From positions 3,519 through 67,518 of the forward strand of contig QIGL01000102.1 in the NCBI GenBank assembly GCA_003228915.1: a stretch of 64,000 nucleotides of DNA. Reading direction: 5' to 3'. The DNA is from Acidiferrobacteraceae bacterium. GTDB lineage: Bacteria > Pseudomonadota > Gammaproteobacteria > Acidiferrobacterales > SZUA-150. The position numbers were made by a program, and so were the translations under genes. This document shows positions 8,098 through 57,573 of the stretch, in pieces. The first letter of the stretch is position 1. Each line of letters opens with the position of its first letter. The notes beneath the pieces were generated by a model. The model worked only from the letters and a program-made list of their open reading frames with translations. It was not told the origin of the DNA and did no database searches.

Positions 8098-8991
8098 TTA
8101 AAGGTCACCAACCCGCTCCCGAATTAACCCCTGAATATTCCTGAACGCCTCCGCACGATAGCTCCCCTTGCGATACAACATGCCGATGCGTCTGCTGGGT
8201 TTGGGTGCTTCGAATGGCAGGTAACGTATCGCATCTTTTTTTGATTGCTTTTTGGGCACTGCAAGCTCGGGCATGAGCGTTAGCCCCATCCCCTCGGCTA
8301 CCATAAAGCGCAGGGTTTCCAGGCTGGATGCATGAAAGGCTGCGTTTTCTGTGGCGCCGGCCATGAAGCAAACATCCAGCGCCTGGTCACGCAGGCAGTG
8401 GCCTTCTTCCAGTAATAGCATTTCACGGTTATTGAGATCGCCCATGGTTATCATTGGCTGGCTGGCCAGTGGCTCGCCCGCAGGGACTGCCAACAGAAAA
8501 GGCTCTTTAAATAACTCCAGCTCGCTGAATTCTTCGGTTTCCACCGGCAGGGCCAGTATCAAAAAATCCAGCTCGGCGCGGCGGAGCTTCTCAAGCAATA
8601 CCGAGGTCTGGTATTCATGGAGCCACAACTTGAGCTTTGGCCAGGTTTTACCGAGGGCAGGCATAATGGCTGGTAGCAGGTACGGCGCGATGGTGGGGAT
8701 CAGCCCTGCGTGCAATTCCCCGGCCATAGGGTCTTCAAAACTCTGGGCAATCTCCTGGATGCCTTTTACATCGGCCAGTACTTTTCTGGCCATTTCGGCC
8801 ACGGCTGAGCCAGCATTGGTCATGGCTACCTGCCGGGTATTACGCTCTACCAGTAATACGCCCAGCTCCTGCTCCAGCTTTTTTAGCTGGCCACTCAATG
8901 TGGGCTGGCTGACAAAACAACGGGCAGCGGCCTTGTGAAAATGGCGTTCTTCATCAATGGCGACCAGGTATAGCAATACTCGTAAATTCAT
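8098..8991 (-). CDS. oxyR: Hydrogen-peroxide-sensing LysR-family regulator OxyR
   Basis: N-terminal HTH ...VSQPTLSGQLKKLEQELG; EEGHCLRDQALDVCF keeps both redox cysteines (E. coli C199/C208 context); divergent from a peroxiredoxin gene. Confidence 0.9.
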   Translation of the reverse strand: MNLRVLLYLVAIDEERHFHKAAARCFVSQPTLSGQLKKLEQELGVLLVERNTRQVAMTNAGSAVAEMARKVLADVKGIQEIAQSFEDPMAGELHAGLIPTIAPYLLPAIMPALGKTWPKLKLWLHEYQTSVLLEKLRRAELDFLILALPVETEEFSELELFKEPFLLAVPAGEPLASQPMITMGDLNNREMLLLEEGHCLRDQALDVCFMAGATENAAFHASSLETLRFMVAEGMGLTLMPELAVPKKQSKKDAIRYLPFEAPKPSRRIGMLYRKGSYRAEAFRNIQGLIRERVGDL

Positions 8992-14131: not shown

Positions 14132-14917
14132 TCATAATTCAAAAAGAACAATATGTCCTTTTCCATATTTCTTGGCCTGGAACATTGCAGTATCTGCTTC
14201 TGTAACAATTGTTTCGACTTTTGTTTTTTTGATACCAAAAATACGTACACCAAAACTGGTTCCAATTTGGAACTGTTTTCCTTCAAACTTAATTGGCTGA
14301 CTTAAACATAACTGCAATTTTTCAGCAACATCAAATGCTTCTTGTCCTGCCAAATCTGCATCATTGCCCAACCTGTCCAGAACGACAATAAACTCATCTC
14401 CACCCATGCGAACTACAAGATCACCTTCCCTGACGTTTGCCGATAAACGATTGGCAACTTCTACAAGTACCGCATCTCCGGCATTATGACCATAATTATC
14501 ATTAACGGGCTTAAAATTATCTAAATCCAGGAGCAATAACGAACTATAAAATTCATGCCTGACACTCTCAGCAATAATTTTTTCCATATATTTTGTCAAA
14601 AAACGCCGATTCGGTAACCCTGTTAATTGATCGCTATAGGCCATGCTCTCAAGTTTTACCAATGCTTCGTCACGGGCAACAACGAATGGCTTGATAACCC
14701 AGAGATAAATAATGGGCGTGCTTACAATCACCAGAATTACGGTGTCGATAAATACTTCCAGACTTGTTCCAAATGTATGTGGTATCAAAGCCAGGGAAAA
14801 CATAATCACCAACTCGACAATCGAGATAATTACGGTGATTCGGATAATTACCTGTTTTACAGTTAAGGTGGTCACAATTTTTCTTATAAAATTTTTTCGG
14901 GCGCGCCTGAATATCAT
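14132..14917 (-). CDS. Membrane-anchored GGDEF diguanylate cyclase (start moved to the ATG at 14917)
   Basis: RMGGDEFIVVL active site with RxxD I-site (REGD) five residues upstream; N-terminal hydrophobic helices; ATGA overlap with the upstream gene stop. Confidence 0.8.
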   Translation of the reverse strand: MIFRRARKNFIRKIVTTLTVKQVIIRITVIISIVELVIMFSLALIPHTFGTSLEVFIDTVILVIVSTPIIYLWVIKPFVVARDEALVKLESMAYSDQLTGLPNRRFLTKYMEKIIAESVRHEFYSSLLLLDLDNFKPVNDNYGHNAGDAVLVEVANRLSANVREGDLVVRMGGDEFIVVLDRLGNDADLAGQEAFDVAEKLQLCLSQPIKFEGKQFQIGTSFGVRIFGIKKTKVETIVTEADTAMFQAKKYGKGHIVLFEL

Positions 14918-15963
14918 GTAGAGTCTACTGCGCCTTCTGCAGCAGTAACAGGATAACGCTCCATTAAATAACAAAGACAATCCTGGCGTATGGCGCGTTC
15001 ATTTACAGTGAGCATAGAAGGCATAATCGGTGCGCGCAACCTGAGCTCACTATTTTTGATTTCAAAATAAAGATCCCGTACTTCCCGGCCCTGTTCGTCA
15101 CGCACATCAAGGGGCACATCAGTACGGCCGTTTACCCAACCCAGGGTAGTATTGGCAGGTAACTCTCGAAAATTCAAGTGATCCAGGTCATCAGGAAAAC
15201 GTATGTCACATTTCCCATGCTTGAAACAAAAACTCACATCGGGCAATACCTTGGCCACAGCCACAGTGTGGAATAAATCTATATCGTGGGCACTGACATC
15301 ATGATCAGGGATCCGGGATAAATGTAAACAGGCATCAATGAAATCCGTCGCATGGCTAACACCGTTGGCCTGACCTGGCTGGCCGCATTCTACTGTCAGT
15401 GCCGGACAAAATTCTGAAAATACAGAAGACTGCACCGTATCTGGACGAGTGAAATAAACCACCGTGCGACTGAATAGTGTTGCCAGGTGAAAAAAATGAT
15501 GGTCCAACCGGTTGACACAGGCATAATGGGGATTAATGCCGGTATTATTGTGAATATCAATACTGGCAAAAGGTTTGCGCTGGCGCATTATGTCAGTTAC
15601 CTGTTGCATCATTTTATGTTCAGGCAAAGTCTGGTCAGACTTATTGATGCGCCAAATACGATTGTAATCCGGTTGCTGGTCCAGGAAACGGACTTTGTGC
15701 CTGGCCGCCTCAATATTACCTATATATATTGATAAATCTCTTGGTAGCTTTTTATCCTGATATTTTTTGAAAATTGCTCTTAGCGCACACCAGCCAGTAT
15801 CCTCATTACCATGCAACAACACAGACAAAAATAATGGCGTTTTGTCTCGCCCTGGCAAATGAATCAGAGTAGGCCCCGGCAAATGTTTATGCAGGTCACT
15901 GGCTTCACAACCGAGCAAGGCCTCTGGTAAGTTATTGAGCACGTTTAACATCAAAGCCCCCAC
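14914..15963 (-). CDS. Succinylglutamate desuccinylase/aspartoacylase (AstE/AspA, M14-like) family protein
   Basis: LLHGNEDTGW zinc-ligand motif. The start is ambiguous: GTG at 15963, or ATG at 15951 sharing 1 nt with the upstream stop. Confidence 0.7.
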   Translation of the reverse strand: MGALMLNVLNNLPEALLGCEASDLHKHLPGPTLIHLPGRDKTPLFLSVLLHGNEDTGWCALRAIFKKYQDKKLPRDLSIYIGNIEAARHKVRFLDQQPDYNRIWRINKSDQTLPEHKMMQQVTDIMRQRKPFASIDIHNNTGINPHYACVNRLDHHFFHLATLFSRTVVYFTRPDTVQSSVFSEFCPALTVECGQPGQANGVSHATDFIDACLHLSRIPDHDVSAHDIDLFHTVAVAKVLPDVSFCFKHGKCDIRFPDDLDHLNFRELPANTTLGWVNGRTDVPLDVRDEQGREVRDLYFEIKNSELRLRAPIMPSMLTVNERAIRQDCLCYLMERYPVTAAEGAVDST

Positions 15964-17375
15964 TCATGCACCGGCTTGCCGGTACGTTGGTGTTCACGAT
16001 ATGCCATAGTCAGGGCCTGCATGTCGCGGCCATTGCGACGAACAAAGGCCTGTTGCCAGGCCGTGCCATTACGGTTTAACCCTACCCGTTCTTCTATAAT
16101 ATTCAGTAACAACTCTATATCACTGGCATCTATTTTTAGTTTTTCCAGCCCAACACGGGCCAGGGGAATTAACTGGGTCAATAATAAATCTTTAATATTG
16201 ATTTCCTTGCCATTGAGCCAGTGGATACGGGCCCCCAGACCATAACGGGCTGCGGTGTAAAAATTATTTTTAGCATGCTCAAATGGCAGGCAGGATTCCG
16301 GCGCCACCTCATCGGTGGATAACATATAGGTCAGGCCGTAAAACAGTGCTGCATTAGCAATGGTATCGACCAGGCTGGGTCCGGCCGGAATCACACGGTT
16401 CTCGATACGCAAATGAGGCTGGCCTTTATCATCGATACCGACAAGAGGCCGGTTCCAGCGCCAGATCGTACTATTGTGCAAACACAAGTGACTGAAGTAT
16501 GCAGGATTCTCATTGAGCATCTCTGGTAACAACACCGGGTAGCGTTTGATGTTTTCTGTAAAACATTCCATCAGTGACTCTTTAACATAACCCGTGCCGA
16601 AGGTGACTCGTGGTTCATTGTAATTATTTTCTGAAGACACTGAAACGGCTTGTTCGAATAACGGGATCCGTGTTTCATCCCATAAATCAGTGCCAAATAA
16701 AAATGGTGAATTGGCCGTAGCAGCAACCAGGGGGGCAGATAAAATAATAGCTGCATTGTAGGCCCGTGCTGCCTGACTTTGTCCTACTTGCAAATGCAAT
16801 TGAAACGAAGTGGCGGCAGATTCCAGCATCACATTTTCGTGAAAAGTGTGCAGGCGCTCCTGCCCTTCTATTTCCAATACCACTGGCTCGCCCTTACGCA
16901 GCCTCAACACTTGTTCGTTCAGCGCCCGGTAACGACACATGTCGGACATCGTGTCTAAACCCAGCAGGTCACTTTGCAGGGTTGGTAATATGCCGATGAT
17001 TAACATCTCGGCATCCAGTTCACCGGCGATCTCATTACATCGCGTCCAGTTATGCTCAAGCTCACGTAACATTTTATTAAAGACATTTCCCGTCAGGGTA
17101 CGTGGCAGACTGTTTAATTCGATGTTGTAACGGGATAATTCCGGTGACACCAGGTTGGTATCGATACGTTTTAAAAATTCTTCATTTTTAGGTGCTGGCT
17201 GGCAACTATCATCGATTAACCAGCTCTCAAGTTCAAACCCTGCCCGGGTATGGGAAATATCAAAAACATTCTTTTGAAAACATTCTGCCAGGTAGCGTGT
17301 CTCTGTTGCCAAGCGGGACTCAAACACGGAAAAATCGTGTTTATGAAAGTGGCCTTGAGCAATTTCCTGTCCCAT
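15951..17375 (-). CDS. Glutamate-cysteine ligase family 2 (GCS2)-like carboxylate-amine ligase
   Basis: 474 aa; FELESWLID, FQLHLQV, ATANSPF and RIENRVIPAGP resemble conserved GCS2/YbdK blocks. Confidence 0.6.
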   Translation of the reverse strand: MGQEIAQGHFHKHDFSVFESRLATETRYLAECFQKNVFDISHTRAGFELESWLIDDSCQPAPKNEEFLKRIDTNLVSPELSRYNIELNSLPRTLTGNVFNKMLRELEHNWTRCNEIAGELDAEMLIIGILPTLQSDLLGLDTMSDMCRYRALNEQVLRLRKGEPVVLEIEGQERLHTFHENVMLESAATSFQLHLQVGQSQAARAYNAAIILSAPLVAATANSPFLFGTDLWDETRIPLFEQAVSVSSENNYNEPRVTFGTGYVKESLMECFTENIKRYPVLLPEMLNENPAYFSHLCLHNSTIWRWNRPLVGIDDKGQPHLRIENRVIPAGPSLVDTIANAALFYGLTYMLSTDEVAPESCLPFEHAKNNFYTAARYGLGARIHWLNGKEINIKDLLLTQLIPLARVGLEKLKIDASDIELLLNIIEERVGLNRNGTAWQQAFVRRNGRDMQALTMAYREHQRTGKPVHEWGL

Positions 17376-17660
17376 ATCTGGTGTTTGTCAGTGTGATACT
17401 CAATTTCTGCTCTAATACTTAATCACAGTATGGCTGGTAAATTCAAAATTTACCTGATTTGACTCAATAAAATGGTTAAAAACAGTATCTTAGCGCCAGA
17501 GAAGCCCATTTAAAGCACGATAAACACATGATCCCTGTGAAATATTGGCTTAAATCTGAGATATCTGGCCAATCCTGTAGAATTGCGCCCTTACCAGATA
17601 TATTGACGCCCTGGATAACTGGATTACAGTTCATTTAAGTTCAAAGTTTATGGAGTTAGC

Positions 17661-18701
17661 ATGAGACCGGCACACATACTTGCAGTTTTGGAGCGGGAGT
17701 TTACGAGTACACTGGAAGGCCACCATACCCCGGTCATGCTTTGGGGTCCACCCGGTGTTGGTAAATCACAGATGGTTATTGAGGTAGCCAACAAACACGA
17801 CAAACCCGTGATTGATATTCGTCTTTCACAAATGGAGCCAACTGATTTGCGTGGCATCCCCTTTCGCTCTGATCAAGGTGTGGAATGGGCCGTGCCAGTA
17901 ATATTGCCCGATGCAGAACGCCACGGGCCCGAAGGTATTTTATTTCTTGATGAAATTACCTCGGCTGCACCTACCGTGTCGGCGGCGGCTTATCAACTCA
18001 TTCTCGACCGTCGCCTGGGTGAATACCAGGTACCTGACGGCTGGGCAATTTTTGCTGCCGGTAATCGACAGGGTGATCGTGGTGTCACCTACGCCATGCC
18101 GGCACCACTGGCGAATCGATTTTCTCACTTTGAGGTAGATACCCACCTGGATGACTGGGTGGCCTGGGCGTATGCCCATCAAATTGATGAGCGTGTGATT
18201 GCTTTTTTACGTTTCCGGCCAGAGCTTTTGTTTGATTTTGACCCGGCCCATAATCCCGTGGCTTTTCCTTCTCCTCGTTCCTGGGAGTTTGCCCACCGGG
18301 CATTGCAAAAATTTACTGGTGGTAATTTATTGTTGGAGTCAATACAGGCTTGTGTCGGCCCGGCTGCCGGTATCGAGTTAAATGCCTTTATTGATAATCT
18401 CGATAACCTGCCAGATATTGACGCTATCGTACAAGGTGAAGAAGCCTCGGTGCCAAAAGAAACTGACTTACAGTATGCCGTGGCTGCAGCGCTGGTCGGT
18501 CGCGCTATCCGGGTAAAAGATAATGGCCAGTCACAAGAAGTGTTTGGCCATATTCTTGATTACGCAGGCCGTTTCCCGCAACGGGAAATGGGCGTAATGC
18601 TGGTATCGGATATGCACCGGGCAGTTGGTCAGCCGCTTTTTGAAGTGCCCCAATTTACCAACTGGGCGAAAAAGATTGCTGATGTCATGTTGTTCGAGTA
18701 A
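17661..18701 (+). CDS. MoxR-like AAA+ ATPase (AAA_5 type)
   Basis: Walker A GPPGVGKS, Walker B ILFLDEIT, 346 aa; followed by a VWA gene. Confidence 0.85.
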   Translation: MRPAHILAVLEREFTSTLEGHHTPVMLWGPPGVGKSQMVIEVANKHDKPVIDIRLSQMEPTDLRGIPFRSDQGVEWAVPVILPDAERHGPEGILFLDEITSAAPTVSAAAYQLILDRRLGEYQVPDGWAIFAAGNRQGDRGVTYAMPAPLANRFSHFEVDTHLDDWVAWAYAHQIDERVIAFLRFRPELLFDFDPAHNPVAFPSPRSWEFAHRALQKFTGGNLLLESIQACVGPAAGIELNAFIDNLDNLPDIDAIVQGEEASVPKETDLQYAVAAALVGRAIRVKDNGQSQEVFGHILDYAGRFPQREMGVMLVSDMHRAVGQPLFEVPQFTNWAKKIADVMLFE

Positions 18702-18727
18702 TTGTTCGAGTAATCGACATAACCGAC

Positions 18728-20029
18728 ATGTCTCATGATACCGAAACAAAACTGGCCGCAGCCCGCACCCGGTTAATACTGGACAAGCCTTTTCTCGGCG
18801 CCCTGGTGTTACGATTACCATTAAAACTGGCGGACCCTGACTGGTGTCAGACAGTGGCCACGGATGCCCGTCATTTTTATTACAACAAAAGCTACATCGA
18901 CTCACTGTCCCTGGATCAGACCCAGTTCGTCCTGGCCCACGAAGCAATGCATTGTGCCCTGTCACATTTTGCCCGGCGCCAGCACCGGGTAAAAAAACGC
19001 TGGGACGTGGCCTGTGATTTTGCTATCAACCCATTACTCATCAATGATGGCCTCATTCCCGCGCCCAATGTTTTGTACATGAAAGAATATGAAGACATGA
19101 CTGCGGAAGAAATTTACCCGCTGATTGATGAGAATACCGAAGACGGCCCAATGGATGATCATTTATATGATGAGGGTGAAGGCGGAAATAACGGTGAAGG
19201 TTCGCAGCCACCGCCAAAACAGGCACAGCAAGATGAACAACAACAACCGCAAGGTGGTGACCAACACCATGACGAACGCCCCAATGATAATGATGATCAA
19301 AATGAAGGCGGGGGAAATGGCGGCAACAATGATGAAAATCAAACCAACCAAAATAATACCACCGGGGCCGCTAAACCACCGCCGCTGAACCAGAATGAAA
19401 TTGAGCAACTGGGCGTACAGTGGCAACAACGACTGGCCGGTGCCGCCCAACAGGCGCAACAAGCAGGCAAACTGGGTGGTAACATGGCGCGCCTGGTTGA
19501 TCATTTACTGCAACCACAATTACCCTGGCGCATGTTGTTATCACGCTATATGAATTACTCGGCCCGTGATGACTACAGCTTTACCCGCCCTTCCAGTCGA
19601 CGCCAGGGCGATGCCATCCTGCCCAGCCTGCATAGTGCCCAGGTCGAAGTAACCGTTATACTCGATACCAGCGGCTCGATTGGCCAAAAAGAAATGCACG
19701 AATTTTTATCTGAAGTTGATGCGCTCAAAGGGCAGATGCGGGCCCGGGTGACGCTTCAGGCCTGTGATGAAAAACTGGCCGATGATGGCCCCTGGCACTA
19801 TGAACCCTGGGACGAATTAAAATTACCGGCCTCCCTGCAAGGTGGTGGTGGTACACGTTTTACGCCGGCCTTTGAATGGGCAGAGCAACAGGACAAACTC
19901 CCGGACCTGATGCTTTATTTTACCGATGCCGAAGGCGAGTTCCCGGAAAACACACCGAACTTTCCGGTGATATGGCTGGTAAAGGGAAAAGCAAAAGTAC
20001 CCTTTGGCACCAGGATTCAGTTAAATTAA
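18728..20029 (+). CDS. VWA-domain protein with N-terminal HExxH metallopeptidase-like domain (DUF2201-like architecture)
   Basis: LAHEAMHCALSH (HExxH); MIDAS-like VILDTSGSI; long Q/N/D/G-rich linker between the domains. Confidence 0.75.
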   Translation: MSHDTETKLAAARTRLILDKPFLGALVLRLPLKLADPDWCQTVATDARHFYYNKSYIDSLSLDQTQFVLAHEAMHCALSHFARRQHRVKKRWDVACDFAINPLLINDGLIPAPNVLYMKEYEDMTAEEIYPLIDENTEDGPMDDHLYDEGEGGNNGEGSQPPPKQAQQDEQQQPQGGDQHHDERPNDNDDQNEGGGNGGNNDENQTNQNNTTGAAKPPPLNQNEIEQLGVQWQQRLAGAAQQAQQAGKLGGNMARLVDHLLQPQLPWRMLLSRYMNYSARDDYSFTRPSSRRQGDAILPSLHSAQVEVTVILDTSGSIGQKEMHEFLSEVDALKGQMRARVTLQACDEKLADDGPWHYEPWDELKLPASLQGGGGTRFTPAFEWAEQQDKLPDLMLYFTDAEGEFPENTPNFPVIWLVKGKAKVPFGTRIQLN

Positions 20030-20045
20030 TTAAAATAATATCATC

Positions 20046-21197
20046 ATGGAACTGTCACACGAAGATCAATTGCGACTCAATGTTTTACTAGCCAATCCCT
20101 TCGATGCCATACGCATTGATGATTCGCGCATGGTTGTTTATGCCCTGACCGGTGAAACCGAAGCGAAAATTCCGCTTAATCCCACTGGTCGCAACGATAT
20201 CTATTTAAAACAGGTCAGGGAATTGTTATCAGGTCATGCCCTGGGTTCGCCAGGGGGTTACCCGATTTACCTGAAACGATGGACACGCATGGGGCAGGCA
20301 CGAGATGATAATTTATCGGAGTTACTCAAACTGGGTGAGCCAGAAGCCGTCACCGCGGTGTCCGGTGCCAGTGGTTTAACCAACGAACTTGCTCGCCGTG
20401 TCTGGTGGGCAAACCCTTGTGCCGCTATTGCTCGTAGTATGCTGGAGAAAGAAGCGGTTATTACTGGTCCCATGGGTAAAATCCTGGCCCGGTATCTAGT
20501 GGAATTTTTGCCCTTTGAAACTGAATCAGAACTCATGATTGATTCGGTTCGCCTGGTATTACAGCCCGACCTGATTGATGACCAAACCCGGGAGCACCTG
20601 TGGGCCAAAGGCAAACAAAAACGAGCTTACCATATTGGTTTTTTGGCAGCACAGCCCAATAATTTGCCAGAACCACAACCTGCAAGAGCAGATATAAACC
20701 AATATAGTGACACCCTAATACAGGCAGGCGAAAATAATAATAATTTTGCCACGCTTCTCATCAAGCTGCTTGGCAAGGATGGCCAGTCATTCCTGGCTAT
20801 CGCTGAATCAATATTAAAAAAACCTGCCAATCAAGATGATGTCGTGATACTGCTAAATACACTGAAAAAATATTTTTCAGACGCCTGCATAAATCAAGAC
20901 AAGTGCCAGGACATAGAAAAAATTATGTCTGAAAGTGCGATCTTGTGTGAACAAAAAGAAACCACTCAAGCTAACAACGACCATCACCATAATAATCTGG
21001 CTACCATGTTGGCCAACCAACCAAATCTCAAAAATGAAATACATGCCATGCTGGTACTGGCTCGCTGCGACGAAGCCGTGGTTACACCCGTATTCGCCAG
21101 GACAACTGCCATTGGTACGGTCATGCGAAAAAAACTGGTGCCAATTACTGACCAACTACTTGTCATGTTTTCGCACTTACGAACGCCCAATTCGTAA
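20046..21197 (+). CDS. Conserved-looking hypothetical protein (383 aa); possibly DsrS-like, unverified
   Basis: 16 nt after the VWA gene. The size and N-terminus (MELSHEDQLRLNVLLANP) remind me of proteins annotated DsrS in sulfur oxidisers, but this is unverified recollection. Confidence 0.5.
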   Translation: MELSHEDQLRLNVLLANPFDAIRIDDSRMVVYALTGETEAKIPLNPTGRNDIYLKQVRELLSGHALGSPGGYPIYLKRWTRMGQARDDNLSELLKLGEPEAVTAVSGASGLTNELARRVWWANPCAAIARSMLEKEAVITGPMGKILARYLVEFLPFETESELMIDSVRLVLQPDLIDDQTREHLWAKGKQKRAYHIGFLAAQPNNLPEPQPARADINQYSDTLIQAGENNNNFATLLIKLLGKDGQSFLAIAESILKKPANQDDVVILLNTLKKYFSDACINQDKCQDIEKIMSESAILCEQKETTQANNDHHHNNLATMLANQPNLKNEIHAMLVLARCDEAVVTPVFARTTAIGTVMRKKLVPITDQLLVMFSHLRTPNS

Positions 21198-21198
21198 C

Positions 21199-21747
21199 AT
21201 GGCCGGCATCGCCATCATCAAAGTTTCGCTCACTGTCAATACCGTGTTATCGACAGAAACATTAATACAGGAATTTGGTGAATTAGCATTAGGCATGGGG
21301 CCAAGCTTGTCTGAACAGGTAAATCGTTATGCCCAGGAAAACAAGCTGGGTTATTATCCGGCGCTGGATTTTTTTAAACAAAACCAGGGTGTCGACCAGG
21401 AACTACTGGACACTGCCGAACACATAAGCTGGCTGGTTTGTGAATGGGCCCAGCGCCAGATAAGGCTTCGACTTCGAGAACCATTTTCTCACGTACAATT
21501 TGACCAGGTACAATCTGTGGCCTACTCCATGCCCAGGGTGCGCCCCAGCATGGCCGGGGCACAGGAATTATTATCAGAACATTTCACGCCAGATTCAGTC
21601 CGCCTGACCGTGATCACCTCGTCAATCGAGAGGTCGAATATTAACCTGGCGGGATATGAAAAACTCGCTGTCCACAAGTTCCGACGCTGGTTAGATACTG
21701 TTTTCGAGAGCATTAAAATTAGTGATGCCCACGTCATCAACAGCTAA
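21199..21747 (+). CDS. Hypothetical protein (182 aa; start at the internal ATG at 21199)
   Basis: ATG lies 1 nt after the upstream stop (taacATG). The longer ORF from 20935 would overlap the preceding gene by 263 nt. Confidence 0.5.
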   Translation: MAGIAIIKVSLTVNTVLSTETLIQEFGELALGMGPSLSEQVNRYAQENKLGYYPALDFFKQNQGVDQELLDTAEHISWLVCEWAQRQIRLRLREPFSHVQFDQVQSVAYSMPRVRPSMAGAQELLSEHFTPDSVRLTVITSSIERSNINLAGYEKLAVHKFRRWLDTVFESIKISDAHVINS

Positions 21748-21756
21748 ACCCGGGCA

Positions 21757-21784
21757 CTTGAAATATCTCCAGGCAGCCCCAATA
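21757..21784 (+). promoter_or_regulatory. Sigma-32 (RpoH)-type heat-shock promoter of htpG
   Basis: CTTGAAA (21757-21763), 13-nt spacer, CCCCAATA (21777-21784), against consensus CTTGAAA-N13-15-CCCCATNT; about 85 nt upstream of the htpG ATG. Confidence 0.6.
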
Positions 21785-48801: not shown

Positions 48802-49281
48802 TTAAACAAACAGTGACACGTCCGAATCGCCGGCAAAACCCATAAACGTCGAGGCCCCGCCAAATGTTACACCGTCAATAAAATCGCTTGGTTTAAAATC
48901 AAACAGGTCAACCGTCATTTGACAGCCAATCATTCTAACGCCGGCCTCAAGACTCAGGCTGCGTAACTCGTCAACACTGGCCACGCCCTTTGATTTCATT
49001 TTTTGTTTCATCATCATGGTCATGACGCTTTCCATGCCAGGCAGTGCTGTGCCCAGTACCGGAAACCATTTATCCATGGCCATGGGCATGGGCATACCAG
49101 GATTGCCCAATGGGCTGACCTTGAGATTGAGGTCTTTTTTCAAAAGCTGGAGACCGTAGAATGTAAAAAAGATCTCGACTTCATAACCCAGGGCAGCGGC
49201 TGTGGAAGCCAGGATAAACGGGGGATAGGCCCAATCCAGCGTGCCCTTGGTTGCGATTAAAGCCATTTTCTTATCTGCCAT
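48802..49281 (-). CDS. DsrE/DsrF-like family sulfur-relay protein (soluble, COG2210-like)
   Basis: 159 aa; ALIATKGTLDWAYPPFILASTAA N-terminus typical of this family; downstream of tusA. Confidence 0.65.
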   Translation of the reverse strand: MADKKMALIATKGTLDWAYPPFILASTAAALGYEVEIFFTFYGLQLLKKDLNLKVSPLGNPGMPMPMAMDKWFPVLGTALPGMESVMTMMMKQKMKSKGVASVDELRSLSLEAGVRMIGCQMTVDLFDFKPSDFIDGVTFGGASTFMGFAGDSDVSLFV

Positions 49282-51537: not shown

Positions 51538-51951
51538 ATGCGGTATACCGCTCAAATAATTGCAGGGGCAAGCGCCCTCGCCATCATCCTTGGCAGCACT
51601 TTTTTTCCTACAGTTACCTTTGCAGGTGGCGAGTTGCCAAGCAAGAAAGCCTGTAAATCACCTAGTGATGCCGTTGTTAAGGGTAGCTGCTTAGTGACTG
51701 ATCGTAAAAAAGGTAATTGTGCAGCGTGCCACCAGTTTAAGGGATTGGAAAAAACTCGTCTCCAGGCTGGTAATATCGCACCACCACTTGTTGCCATGAA
51801 ACAACGCTTTCCCGATAAAGCAAAACTCAGAAAACAAATTTACGACTCAACATCAGTCAACAAAAGATCAGCCATGCCGCCTTTTGGCAGACATGAGATC
51901 TTGTCTGATAAAGAAATCGATAACATTGTCGAATTTTTGTACACGTTATAG
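51538..51951 (+). CDS. soxX: Sulfur oxidation c-type cytochrome SoxX
   Basis: Signal peptide, single CAACH heme motif, 137 aa, first gene of the soxXYZAB order. Confidence 0.8.
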   Translation: MRYTAQIIAGASALAIILGSTFFPTVTFAGGELPSKKACKSPSDAVVKGSCLVTDRKKGNCAACHQFKGLEKTRLQAGNIAPPLVAMKQRFPDKAKLRKQIYDSTSVNKRSAMPPFGRHEILSDKEIDNIVEFLYTL

Positions 51952-52036
51952 TTTTTTTACTGCATTTAATCTTGTTAAAGACTGATTGCTAAAAACTTAA
52001 TACATTATTACTCACCCGATTTTTAGGAGAATAGTT

Positions 52037-52510
52037 GTGAATACCATAAGACGTAGAACATTTCTCAAGGGCTCAGTCGCTACTGGTTTTGCTGCCGTAG
52101 CAGCAACAAGCGGCCTGCTTCGACCCACAGAAGTTTTGGCAGCTGCCTGGCCAAAAAGTGCATTCAAGTCCAAAAAGCTGGACAAAAGCATCAAAAACCT
52201 TTTTGGCAGTAGCAAGGTAACCGCTAGCAAAGCCATTAAAATTAAAGCGCCCATCCAGGCTGAAAATGGTGCAGTGGTCCCATTGTCAGTATCAACTACG
52301 CTGGCAAATGTTACAGCCATAGGTGTTTTTGTTGAAAAAAACCCGTCTCCCCTTGCGACATCTGTCGATTTGCCAGGCGCGACGGCTTTCTACAGTGCCC
52401 GCATTAAAATGGGTAAAACTTCAGCGATCCACGTGATCGTTAAATCAGGCGGCAAACTTCATGTTGCCAAGAAAACAATCAAAGTCACTGTTGGCGGCTG
52501 CGGCGGTTAA
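52037..52510 (+). CDS. soxY: Thiosulfate oxidation carrier protein SoxY
   Basis: GTG start after aggaga RBS; Tat signal RRRTFLKGS; diagnostic C-terminus VTVGGCGG. Confidence 0.9.
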   Translation: MNTIRRRTFLKGSVATGFAAVAATSGLLRPTEVLAAAWPKSAFKSKKLDKSIKNLFGSSKVTASKAIKIKAPIQAENGAVVPLSVSTTLANVTAIGVFVEKNPSPLATSVDLPGATAFYSARIKMGKTSAIHVIVKSGGKLHVAKKTIKVTVGGCGG

Positions 52511-56709: not shown

Positions 56710-57573
56710 ATGTCAGCTAAACATCCAATTGTTGCTATTACAGGCTCTTCAGGCGCCGGCACAACAACAGTCAAAAGAGCATTCGAACACATTTTCTGGC
56801 GTGAAAAAATACACCCGGTCATTATTGAAGGTGACAGTTTTCATCGTTATGACCGCAATGAGATGAAACAAAAAGTGGCTGAATCTGAGGGTGTAAAACC
56901 TTTTAGTCACTTTGGTGAAGATGCCAATTTATTCGACAAGCTTGAGGAACTGTTTCATCAGTATGGCAAAAACGGGACGGGTGAACGTCGTTACTATTTG
57001 CACAGTGATGAAGAAGCAGAGCCCTACAAGCAAGAACCTGGCACCTTTACCCCCTGGGAAGCCCTGCCAGACAATACAGATTTATTATTTTACGAAGGTT
57101 TGCATGGTGGTGTCGCCACTGATAAATCAAATGTAGCCCAATGGGTAGATCTGCTGGTGGGTGTGGTGCCAATCGTGAACCTGGAATGGATCCAGAAAAT
57201 CCACCGTGACACGGCAGAGCGGGGTTATTCGCCAGAGGTCGTTGCTGATACCATCCTGCGACGTATGCCTGACTACGTGACTTGCATCACACCGCAATTT
57301 TCACGTACCCACATTAACTTTCAGCGCGTACCAACAGTTGATACCTCAAACCCGTTCATTGCCCGGGACATCCCTACCCCGGATGAGAGTTTCGTGGTGA
57401 TCCGGTTTAAAGACCCGGAAAAACAGGATTTTCCCTATTTGCAGAATATGATCAGTGATTCCTTCATGTCGCGACCCAATATTCTGGTGGTACCAGGCAG
57501 TAAAATGGGTTTTGCCATGGAAATCATCCTGACACCGATGATTCATGAACTGATGAAAAACAAACGCGCGTAA
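56710..57573 (+). CDS. cbbP: Phosphoribulokinase
   Basis: MSAKHPIVAITGSSGAGTTTVKRAFEHIF... is the classic bacterial PRK N-terminus and P-loop; 287 aa. Confidence 0.9.
   Translation: MSAKHPIVAITGSSGAGTTTVKRAFEHIFWREKIHPVIIEGDSFHRYDRNEMKQKVAESEGVKPFSHFGEDANLFDKLEELFHQYGKNGTGERRYYLHSDEEAEPYKQEPGTFTPWEALPDNTDLLFYEGLHGGVATDKSNVAQWVDLLVGVVPIVNLEWIQKIHRDTAERGYSPEVVADTILRRMPDYVTCITPQFSRTHINFQRVPTVDTSNPFIARDIPTPDESFVVIRFKDPEKQDFPYLQNMISDSFMSRPNILVVPGSKMGFAMEIILTPMIHELMKNKRA

Follow-up and report, generated by a model that had tools for sequence, protein, structure and literature searches.

The gene dsrS has been part of the textbook dsr gene set of sulfur oxidisers since the mid-2000s. According to Grimm, Franz and Dahl (2011), deletion of dsrS in Allochromatium vinosum reportedly slows the oxidation of stored sulfur, and gene fusions are said to have suggested a post-transcriptional effect on dsr expression. 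In the literature, the function of the DsrS protein is described as unresolved (PMC3368242). Pairs of a MoxR-type ATPase and a von Willebrand factor A (VWA) protein, on the other side, are established maturation and remodelling machines, of which NorQD is an example (PMC9976466, PMC13036017), and our literature search returned no paper joining dsrS with MoxR, VWA or AAA+. Here we describe a four-gene cluster in a 64,000-nucleotide (nt) stretch of the chromosome of an Acidiferrobacteraceae bacterium (contig QIGL01000102.1, positions 3,519 to 67,518; hereafter the window), in which a MoxR-type ATPase gene and a gene encoding a protein with zincin-like and VWA-like domains are followed directly by a dsrS homologue and a small gene of its own family. 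DsrS thereby becomes a new candidate client or adaptor for the MoxR-VWA class, and we see about an even chance that the predicted MoxR/VWA-zincin pair is a module for remodelling or processing which, in the oxidation of sulfur by reverse Dsr, makes use of DsrS or has it as its target, a reading taken from gene context. The four genes are:

17661-18701, plus strand: gene 1, MoxR-type AAA+ ATPase (AAA_5), 346 amino acids (aa)
18728-20029, plus strand: gene 2, zincin-like DUF2201_N domain and VWA-like DUF2201 domain, 433 aa
20046-21197, plus strand: gene 3, DsrS homologue, 383 aa
21199-21747, plus strand: gene 4, small-family partner of DsrS, 182 aa

The spacers of 26, 16 and 1 nt listed in an initial annotation of this DNA were obtained again from the coordinates of the open reading frames (ORFs), with all four genes on the plus strand. 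Judging by this spacing, the common strand and the conserved gene order, genes 1 to 4 are probably transcribed as a single operon, and a terminator search within and behind the cluster returned nothing convincing. The ORF listing places the start of gene 4 at a GTG at position 20935, in another frame and overlapping gene 3; in the alignment, all gene 4 homologues start at the position of ATG 21199, so the 182-aa call is correct.

Gene 3 had no significant match in Pfam, NCBIfam, PADLOC or PHROGs. Its full-length homologues nevertheless run into the thousands; several of them, which share 52-54% identity with it, bear the NCBI name ‘sulfur reduction protein DsrS’, as does the Thiocapsa orthologue of Alvin_1265 (PMC10892978). 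In addition, gene 3 is 50% identical over ~378 aa to the gene that closes a dsrK-L-J-O-P-N-R-S cluster in locus L047 (locus numbers are our own), which together with locus L064 shows the classical end of the dsr operon. Upstream of dsrS in L047, Pfam matches agreed with the genes expected there:

512-aa ORF: Fer4 and CCG, expected DsrK
131-aa ORF: multihaem CxxCH, expected DsrJ
403-aa ORF: NrfD, expected DsrP
466-aa ORF: CobB/CobQ-type amidotransferase, expected DsrN
110-aa ORF: Fe-S_biosyn, expected DsrR

The Pfam scan of this locus took in these five ORFs, and DsrL (651 aa) and DsrO (250 aa) were assigned by size and sequence. Both the NCBI-named relatives and the DsrS of L047 bear out the hunch of the initial annotation that gene 3 resembles DsrS, and by sequence homology gene 3 is dsrS; the exact protein encoded in the window is not on record in sequence databases. 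The dsrS gene of the window lies outside any dsr operon and away from the dsrN-dsrR-dsrS position, with no homologue of dsrK, dsrL, dsrJ, dsrO, dsrP, dsrN or dsrR and no dsrAB within the 64 kb. A location in the dsr operon is not strictly defining for DsrS, because dsrS genes away from the dsr cluster have been reported in Sulfurifustis, Sulfuricaulis and Thioalkalivibrio (PMC5024460, PMC5328954).

The linkage between dsrS and the ATPase-VWA pair was counted from both sides. A scan with the DsrS alignment, run on one genome per species, detected a relative in 545 genomes or more, and the best 80 loci were used; the DsrS-side set came to 83 non-redundant species-level or metagenome loci, from which seven contigs were too short, leaving 76 determinable loci. 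The ATPase-side set consisted of 80 metagenome loci with 76-83% identity and the window’s own contig, 50 of them determinable. The VWA gene stood directly upstream of dsrS on the same strand, with a gap of 3-831 nt and with the AAA gene in front of it, in 42 of the 76 DsrS-side loci, and the spacing between the pair and dsrS was mostly below 200 nt. Seen from the ATPase, a VWA gene adjoined the AAA gene on its downstream side in every one of the 50 determinable loci, and dsrS followed right behind the VWA gene in 30. Among three long contigs, picked for their length, one had dsrS by the pair and two did not, one of these two being from a Candidatus Thiodiazotropha genome. The AAA-VWA-DsrS trio occurred in at least eight flanking contexts, which spread over several gammaproteobacterial orders and the Betaproteobacteria (Sulfuricella, Nitrosomonadales). 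The linkage is thus frequent in both directions, and it is not obligatory. The initial annotation would have been refuted by a lack of any conserved linkage of genes 3 and 4 with the MoxR/VWA pair, and these counts show otherwise; as a qualification, gene 4 tracks dsrS rather than the pair, as described below.

Two series of flanking genes are shared by loci with and without one of the partners. The first runs from DUF6866 on the opposite strand to a Sel1 gene, then AAA and VWA where the pair is present, DsrS, gene 4, glutaredoxin and CysG; the second runs from htpG through Hsp15, AAA and VWA to DsrS where present, followed by HDOD and, further on, adk. Loci lacking one partner keep the flanks of loci that have both, which suggests that the block was ancestrally joint; the simplest history is that of an old joint block from which dsrS or the pair moved in some lineages, and the end of the dsr operon would be one destination of dsrS.

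Several observations weigh against a functional coupling of DsrS to the pair. No AAA and VWA genes were found within at least 2.5 kb upstream of dsrS in 34 of the 76 DsrS-side loci. In 20 of the 50 ATPase-side loci, among them that of the Ca. Thiodiazotropha genome (L093) seen on one of the long contigs, or on such contigs themselves, dsrS was missing for at least 2.2 kb around the pair or was not adjacent to it. A neighbour-joining tree of DsrS largely sorts the loci that have the pair and those that lack it into separate clades, so the pattern goes back to a modest number of independent events and part of the adjacency signal is inherited synteny; inherited synteny rather than selection could even be behind much of the adjacency. 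Moreover, the wider family of the pair is found in phages and plasmids with unrelated partners, the pair stands repeatedly beside the heat-shock genes htpG and Hsp15, and the whole case for a coupling between DsrS and the putative module is one of gene context. If the link is synteny only, the finding shrinks to the correct annotation of gene 3 as dsrS.

The protein encoded by gene 1 scored 37.4 bits against AAA_5 of Pfam (cut-off 22), with AAA also above its cut-off, and contained a Walker A motif (GPPGVGKS, G29-S36, nt 17745-17768) and a Walker B motif (LFLDE, with D97-E98 at nt 17949-17954), which along with further motifs are conserved across 33 orthologues. Orthologues carry the name ‘MoxR family ATPase’, which together with the score and the motifs agrees with the initial assignment of gene 1 to the MoxR-type AAA+ ATPases. 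The gene 1 protein is on record, on short metagenome contigs, and its identity among gammaproteobacterial and betaproteobacterial loci is 72-83%. In the PDB it comes closest to midasin AAA modules and to CbbQ, with a likeness confined to the AAA core; the CbbQ matches span residues 22-117, and outside the AAA core no similarity to CbbQ or NorQ and no Pfam CbbQ_C match was found. A match to phrog_249, labelled ‘porphyrin biosynthesis’ (4e-8), likewise covers ~100 residues of the AAA core only. The gene 1 product would be expected to form a hexameric ATPase with chaperone or remodelling activity.

Gene 2 combines two Pfam domains with the motifs of a zincin and of a metal ion-dependent adhesion site (MIDAS), all on the plus strand:

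aa 6-301: DUF2201_N (PF13203), ‘putative metallopeptidase’, 158.6 bits against a cut-off of 23.2, 3e-46
aa 71-75, nt 18938-18952: HExxH motif (HEAMH), conserved in 35 orthologues
~aa 135-235, nt 19130-19432: non-conserved linker of ~100 aa, rich in acidic residues, Q, N and G
aa 308-432, nt 19649-20023: DUF2201 (PF09967), ‘VWA-like’, 79.5 bits against a cut-off of 26.4, 3e-22
aa 313-317, nt 19664-19678: MIDAS motif DxSxS (DTSGS), with GGGT and TDAEG, conserved in 35 orthologues

These domains and conserved motifs corroborate the earlier description of gene 2 as an HExxH metallopeptidase-like N-terminal domain joined to a MIDAS-bearing VWA domain. Since no catalytic motif is missing from either the ATPase or the VWA protein, both are predicted to be working enzymes.

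Three further observations concern the two genes of the pair. The low-complexity linker of gene 2, rich in Q, N, D, E and G, differs in length and sequence between orthologues and yields spurious long antisense ORFs, for example at 19163-19504 on the minus strand and, as cluster c11, in other loci. In at least four loci that otherwise differ (L001 at 8136-8603, L018, L062 and L076), including the closest relative of the window (with a gene 3 product 84% identical), a small gene of the PDDEXK_3 family (127-155 aa) separates the AAA gene from the VWA gene; it is absent from the window itself and has the look of a selfish element that was inserted repeatedly at a single site. In the Ca. Thiodiazotropha locus L093 (7001-13064), the pair lies ~3 kb from soxY-soxZ and beside a gene for a BepA-like M48/TPR protease, and the same order of AAA-VWA followed by M48/TPR is repeated in L135, L138, L152 and L171.

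We modelled DsrS (gene 3) with AlphaFold2, which gave a predicted local distance difference test score (pLDDT) of 86.8 and a predicted template modelling score (pTM) of 0.83. The model begins with a small sheet of three strands at the N terminus, after which ~20 helices pack into a helical-repeat scaffold. A sequence search of the PDB with DsrS found nothing significant, a Foldseek search of the model against the PDB returned only generic alpha-solenoids (E ≥ 0.04, TM ≤ 0.34), and no structural likeness to BchH, CobN or a tetrapyrrole-binding protein of any kind came up. The invariant columns of the DsrS alignment hold many acidic and aromatic residues and no cysteine, which makes the role of a sulfur carrier or an Fe-S protein unlikely. 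As modelled, a helical-repeat DsrS with no conserved cysteine would fit better as an adaptor or a client than as a redox protein or sulfur carrier.

The small protein encoded by gene 4 matched nothing in Pfam, NCBIfam, PADLOC or PHROG. An exhaustive profile search of 1.84 billion proteins found its family in 172 representatives (clusters at 50% identity), which share the conserved motifs GYYPALD and MPRVRP; all 172 stand alone, at ~180 aa or as fragments, and no fusion proteins of the Rosetta-stone kind were among them. In 31 loci, some with the ATPase pair and some lacking it, a homologue of gene 4 lies 20-330 nt 3′ of dsrS: such homologues follow dsrS in 20 of 39 loci that have the pair and in 11 of 31 that lack it (Fisher p = 0.23), which suggests that gene 4 goes with DsrS and not with the ATPase pair. 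The AlphaFold2 model of gene 4 (pLDDT 94.2) shows an alpha/beta fold, for which Foldseek found no match in the PDB at E ≤ 0.001; MoaC, considered as a fold relative (E = 2e-3, TM ~0.2-0.27), was regarded as noise.

At its 3′ side the cluster is bounded by htpG. The 120-nt gap between gene 4 and htpG contains, as the initial annotation had claimed, a sigma-32-type promoter of htpG, which marks the downstream boundary of the cluster. A sigma-32-type motif with three or fewer mismatches lies 64-111 nt upstream of htpG in nine of nine related loci, compared with 2.4% of random 250-nt stretches. At the other end, a divergent intergenic region of 285 nt precedes gene 1, where the sigma-70 matches are at the level of the consensus only. 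The two promoters are:

17603-17630, plus strand: candidate sigma-70-type promoter, TTGACG-16-TACAGT, by consensus match alone at 9 of 12 positions
21757-21784, plus strand: sigma-32-type promoter of htpG, CTTGAAA-13 nt-CCCCAATA, seen in the sequence and conserved in related loci

A sigma-32 promoter like that of htpG was also considered for the four-gene cluster and rejected: such a motif, with three or fewer mismatches, preceded the AAA gene in 6 of 34 loci, at scattered positions.

The heat-shock neighbours raise the alternative that the pair is a general proteostasis module, a stress chaperone-protease with many substrates, to which dsrS is merely a neighbour in a stable htpG/adk block while DsrS and gene 4 act independently of it. 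Consistent with this, many loci, both with and without dsrS, have htpG, Hsp15 (hslR) or both at a distance of a few kb from the pair, and among the 20 metagenome loci without dsrS, Hsp15 is present in 12 and htpG in nine. The pair (72-83% identity) is also far more conserved than DsrS (47-61%), 40% of the ATPase loci have no adjacent dsrS, and a homologue in a cyanophage adjoins Hsp20. However, the AAA gene has no conserved sigma-32 promoter, whereas htpG always has one, and htpG lies near only ~10 of the 42 dsrS-linked loci, on either side. The AAA-VWA-DsrS adjacency persists where heat-shock genes are absent, including in Betaproteobacteria, and the named hosts of close orthologues of the pair all belong to sulfur-oxidiser lineages. 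Moreover, the order htpG-adk-hemH is ordinary gammaproteobacterial synteny, as in E. coli. We hold a general proteostasis role to be somewhat unlikely, yet it is the main rival reading, and the recurring heat-shock neighbours and the 40-45% of loci in which the genes are unlinked speak for it.

All other neighbourhoods of dsrS point to functions in Dsr cofactor supply or assembly. In the canonical operon, dsrN (siroheme amidase type) and dsrR (A-type carrier-like) lie directly upstream of dsrS, and in 19-22 loci glutaredoxin and the siroheme synthase gene CysG lie directly downstream. In a clade without the pair, a Sel1-repeat gene lies 5′ of dsrS, often with overlapping stop and start codons. 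The corresponding conserved block reads Sel1, DsrS, in some cases gene 4, glutaredoxin, CysG, a TPMT-family methyltransferase and a membrane VWA protein; it was seen in L088 (9531-14095) and in ~20 other dsrS loci without the pair, such as L015, L026, L031 and L037, and upstream of it lie a 2OG-Fe(II) oxygenase gene and DUF6866, both on the opposite strand. As far as we found in the literature searched, this block is undescribed as a neighbourhood of dsrS. These neighbours have to do with supplying DsrAB with siroheme and Fe-S, with the CysG linkage being suggestive only, because it is confined to one DsrS clade.

Such neighbours lead to a specific version of the proposal that the module uses or targets DsrS, namely a cofactor-insertion machine of the class I chelatase or NorQD/CoxDE-like type, in which the AAA protein would be the motor, the VWA protein the bridge and DsrS the large helical subunit that binds the substrate or the target, delivering siroheme, siroamide or Fe-S to reverse DsrAB or inserting it there. 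The position of dsrS beside dsrN and dsrR in the canonical operon, its position beside glutaredoxin and CysG elsewhere and the metal insertion driven by MoxR/VWA pairs in NorQD (PMC13036017) are in line with it. By contrast, gene 1 fails the Mg_chelatase model (E = 0.2, 11.5 bits, below the cut-off of 20.3), chelatases and NorD have no known counterpart to the zincin domain, and DsrS has neither a conserved cysteine nor a detected likeness of fold to BchH, CobN or other tetrapyrrole-binding proteins, while the CysG linkage, lying within one DsrS clade, could be inherited synteny. Cofactor insertion in this strict form is, in our view, quite improbable.

Relatives of the pair are widespread in mobile elements. 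Genes 1 and 2 match phrog_1297 (5e-94) and phrog_1314 (2e-87) over their full length, and relatives at 30-45% identity were found in 849 phage records and 132 plasmids; copies in N4-like phages are annotated COG0714 and COG3864, a Burkholderia plasmid has the pair beside type IV secretion genes, and Cupriavidus plasmids also carry relatives. No relative of DsrS or gene 4 was found beside the phage and plasmid pairs, and the notion that DsrS or gene 4 is a diverged form of a 309-aa partner on the Burkholderia plasmid was rejected at an hhalign probability of 0.1-0.2%. The cyanophage with the Hsp20 neighbour is S-TIM66, in which the MoxR/DUF2201 pair lies directly behind that gene. In phages, the DUF2201/COG3864 protein bears the annotation ‘HNH endonuclease’ (phrog_1314, RefSeq; L091 4992-6128, L092 4984-6132), which appears to be a propagated misannotation of the HExxH zincin-VWA protein. 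A literature search did not find a description of the function of the COG0714/COG3864 pair, and the mentions of DUF2201 that it returned were on unrelated topics. The chromosomal, DsrS-linked pair is a slow-evolving branch of this widespread two-gene module.

A further alternative is a mobile-element origin or a conflict role, as an anti-phage MoxR-vWA system in which DsrS or gene 4 would be the effector or sensor. The initial annotation had noted that some MoxR-VWA pairs are parts of conflict systems, and MoxR-vWA ternary conflict systems are indeed known (PMC7159879). The full-length phage-family matches and the many phage and plasmid relatives are what speaks for it. Those relatives, however, are only 30-45% identical and have unrelated partners; in PADLOC, genes 2-4 had no match and gene 1 had nothing beyond generic AAA matches below threshold, and the bpMoxR model stayed below its cut-off (13.9 against 27 bits), which leaves the option unsupported. 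In addition, the pair evolves slowly in synteny with housekeeping genes, no integrase or transposase flanks the cluster, its G+C content is within the range of the remaining window, and DsrS belongs to an energy-metabolism operon. We consider a conflict system very unlikely.

The remaining window describes the host:

48802-49281, minus strand: DsrE/DsrF/DsrH-like (DsrE-family) protein, sulfur-oxidiser marker
52037-52510, plus strand: SoxY, sulfur-oxidiser marker, preceded by a c-type cytochrome gene (the two span 51538-52510)
56710-57573, plus strand: phosphoribulokinase, autotrophy marker

SoxY, the DsrE-family protein and phosphoribulokinase together indicate that the host is an autotrophic sulfur oxidiser, and relatives come from sulfur-oxidiser lineages as well. 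Divergently upstream of the AAA gene lie two genes (14914-17375, minus strand), one for a member of the GCS2 family (glutamate-cysteine ligase 2; 474 aa) and one for a protein that is AstE/AspA-like (349 aa), a pair kept in L001, L009, L039 and L045; Pfam matched their orthologues, and the copies in the window had no match at E ≤ 1e-5. The cluster is best explained as an operon on the chromosome of a chemoautotrophic sulfur oxidiser that has been passed on vertically.

Returning to the proposed use or targeting of DsrS by the module, we speculate that the ATPase hexamer would dock the VWA protein, whose MIDAS site would grip an acidic residue on the target; ATP hydrolysis would then remodel the target, which the zincin domain may also cleave. 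DsrS could serve as a specificity adaptor that brings in a client of the Dsr pathway, such as reverse DsrAB (rDsrAB) or another dsr-encoded protein, or it could be the client itself, with the gene 4 protein as its constitutive partner. In this way the reverse-Dsr machinery for sulfur oxidation would be matured, repaired or turned over in a controlled manner. The suggestion in the initial annotation that gene 3 or gene 4 provides the client or effector of the MoxR/VWA pair is compatible with this scheme and, from gene context, may hold. The reported dsrS phenotype, a slower oxidation of stored sulfur with a post-transcriptional effect on dsr expression, would fit an assembly or turnover factor.

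A bolder form of the proposal makes DsrS and gene 4 the substrate-recognition subunit of an unrecognised three- or four-component ATP-dependent machine that matures or proteolytically controls reverse Dsr, for example by licensing DsrAB to be loaded with siroamide or Fe-S, or by removing Dsr proteins that have been damaged. We think this unlikely as it stands; if true, it would explain the ‘post-transcriptional’ dsrS phenotype and give the COG0714/COG3864 pair its first cellular function. The orphan DsrS gains a concrete hypothesis, with a catalytically intact pair 5′ of it on the same strand in over half of the sampled lineages, a ~180-aa partner and siroheme/Fe-S neighbours elsewhere, and the COG0714/COG3864 pair, common in phages and plasmids, gains a first cellular context.

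Among known systems, the phage and plasmid COG0714/COG3864 pairs have the same two-gene arrangement and the same full-length domain organisation as the pair described here but differ in sequence (30-45% identity) and in having no DsrS or gene 4 companion. The MoxR-vWA ternary conflict systems (Kaur et al. 2020, PMC7159879) likewise join a MoxR-vWA couple to extra conserved components, and some of their vWA proteins have peptidase domains; the window cluster, by contrast, contains no VMAP, iSTAND, FtsH or beta-propeller component, and its genes are highly conserved in a housekeeping setting, whereas the conflict systems are diversifying. DsrS of A. vinosum, the last gene product of dsrABEFHCMKLJOPNRS, is a full-length homologue of gene 3 of similar size (383 aa in the window), yet its gene lies inside the dsr operon, whereas the dsrS of the window comes after a MoxR/VWA pair and before a small partner gene. 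The NorQ/NorD, CbbQ/CbbO, CoxD/CoxE and RavA/ViaA pairs, like the pair here, place an AAA_5/MoxR ATPase gene next to a gene for a MIDAS-bearing VWA protein, beside a candidate client. NorQD, CbbQO and CoxDE serve as precedents for the proposed module (PMC9976466, PMC13036017). The VWA protein of the window is of the DUF2201 (COG3864) type with an N-terminal HExxH zincin domain, which, to our knowledge, NorD, CbbO, CoxE and ViaA lack. By analogy, the logic of remodelling a dedicated target would be expected to be shared with the NorQD-type pairs.

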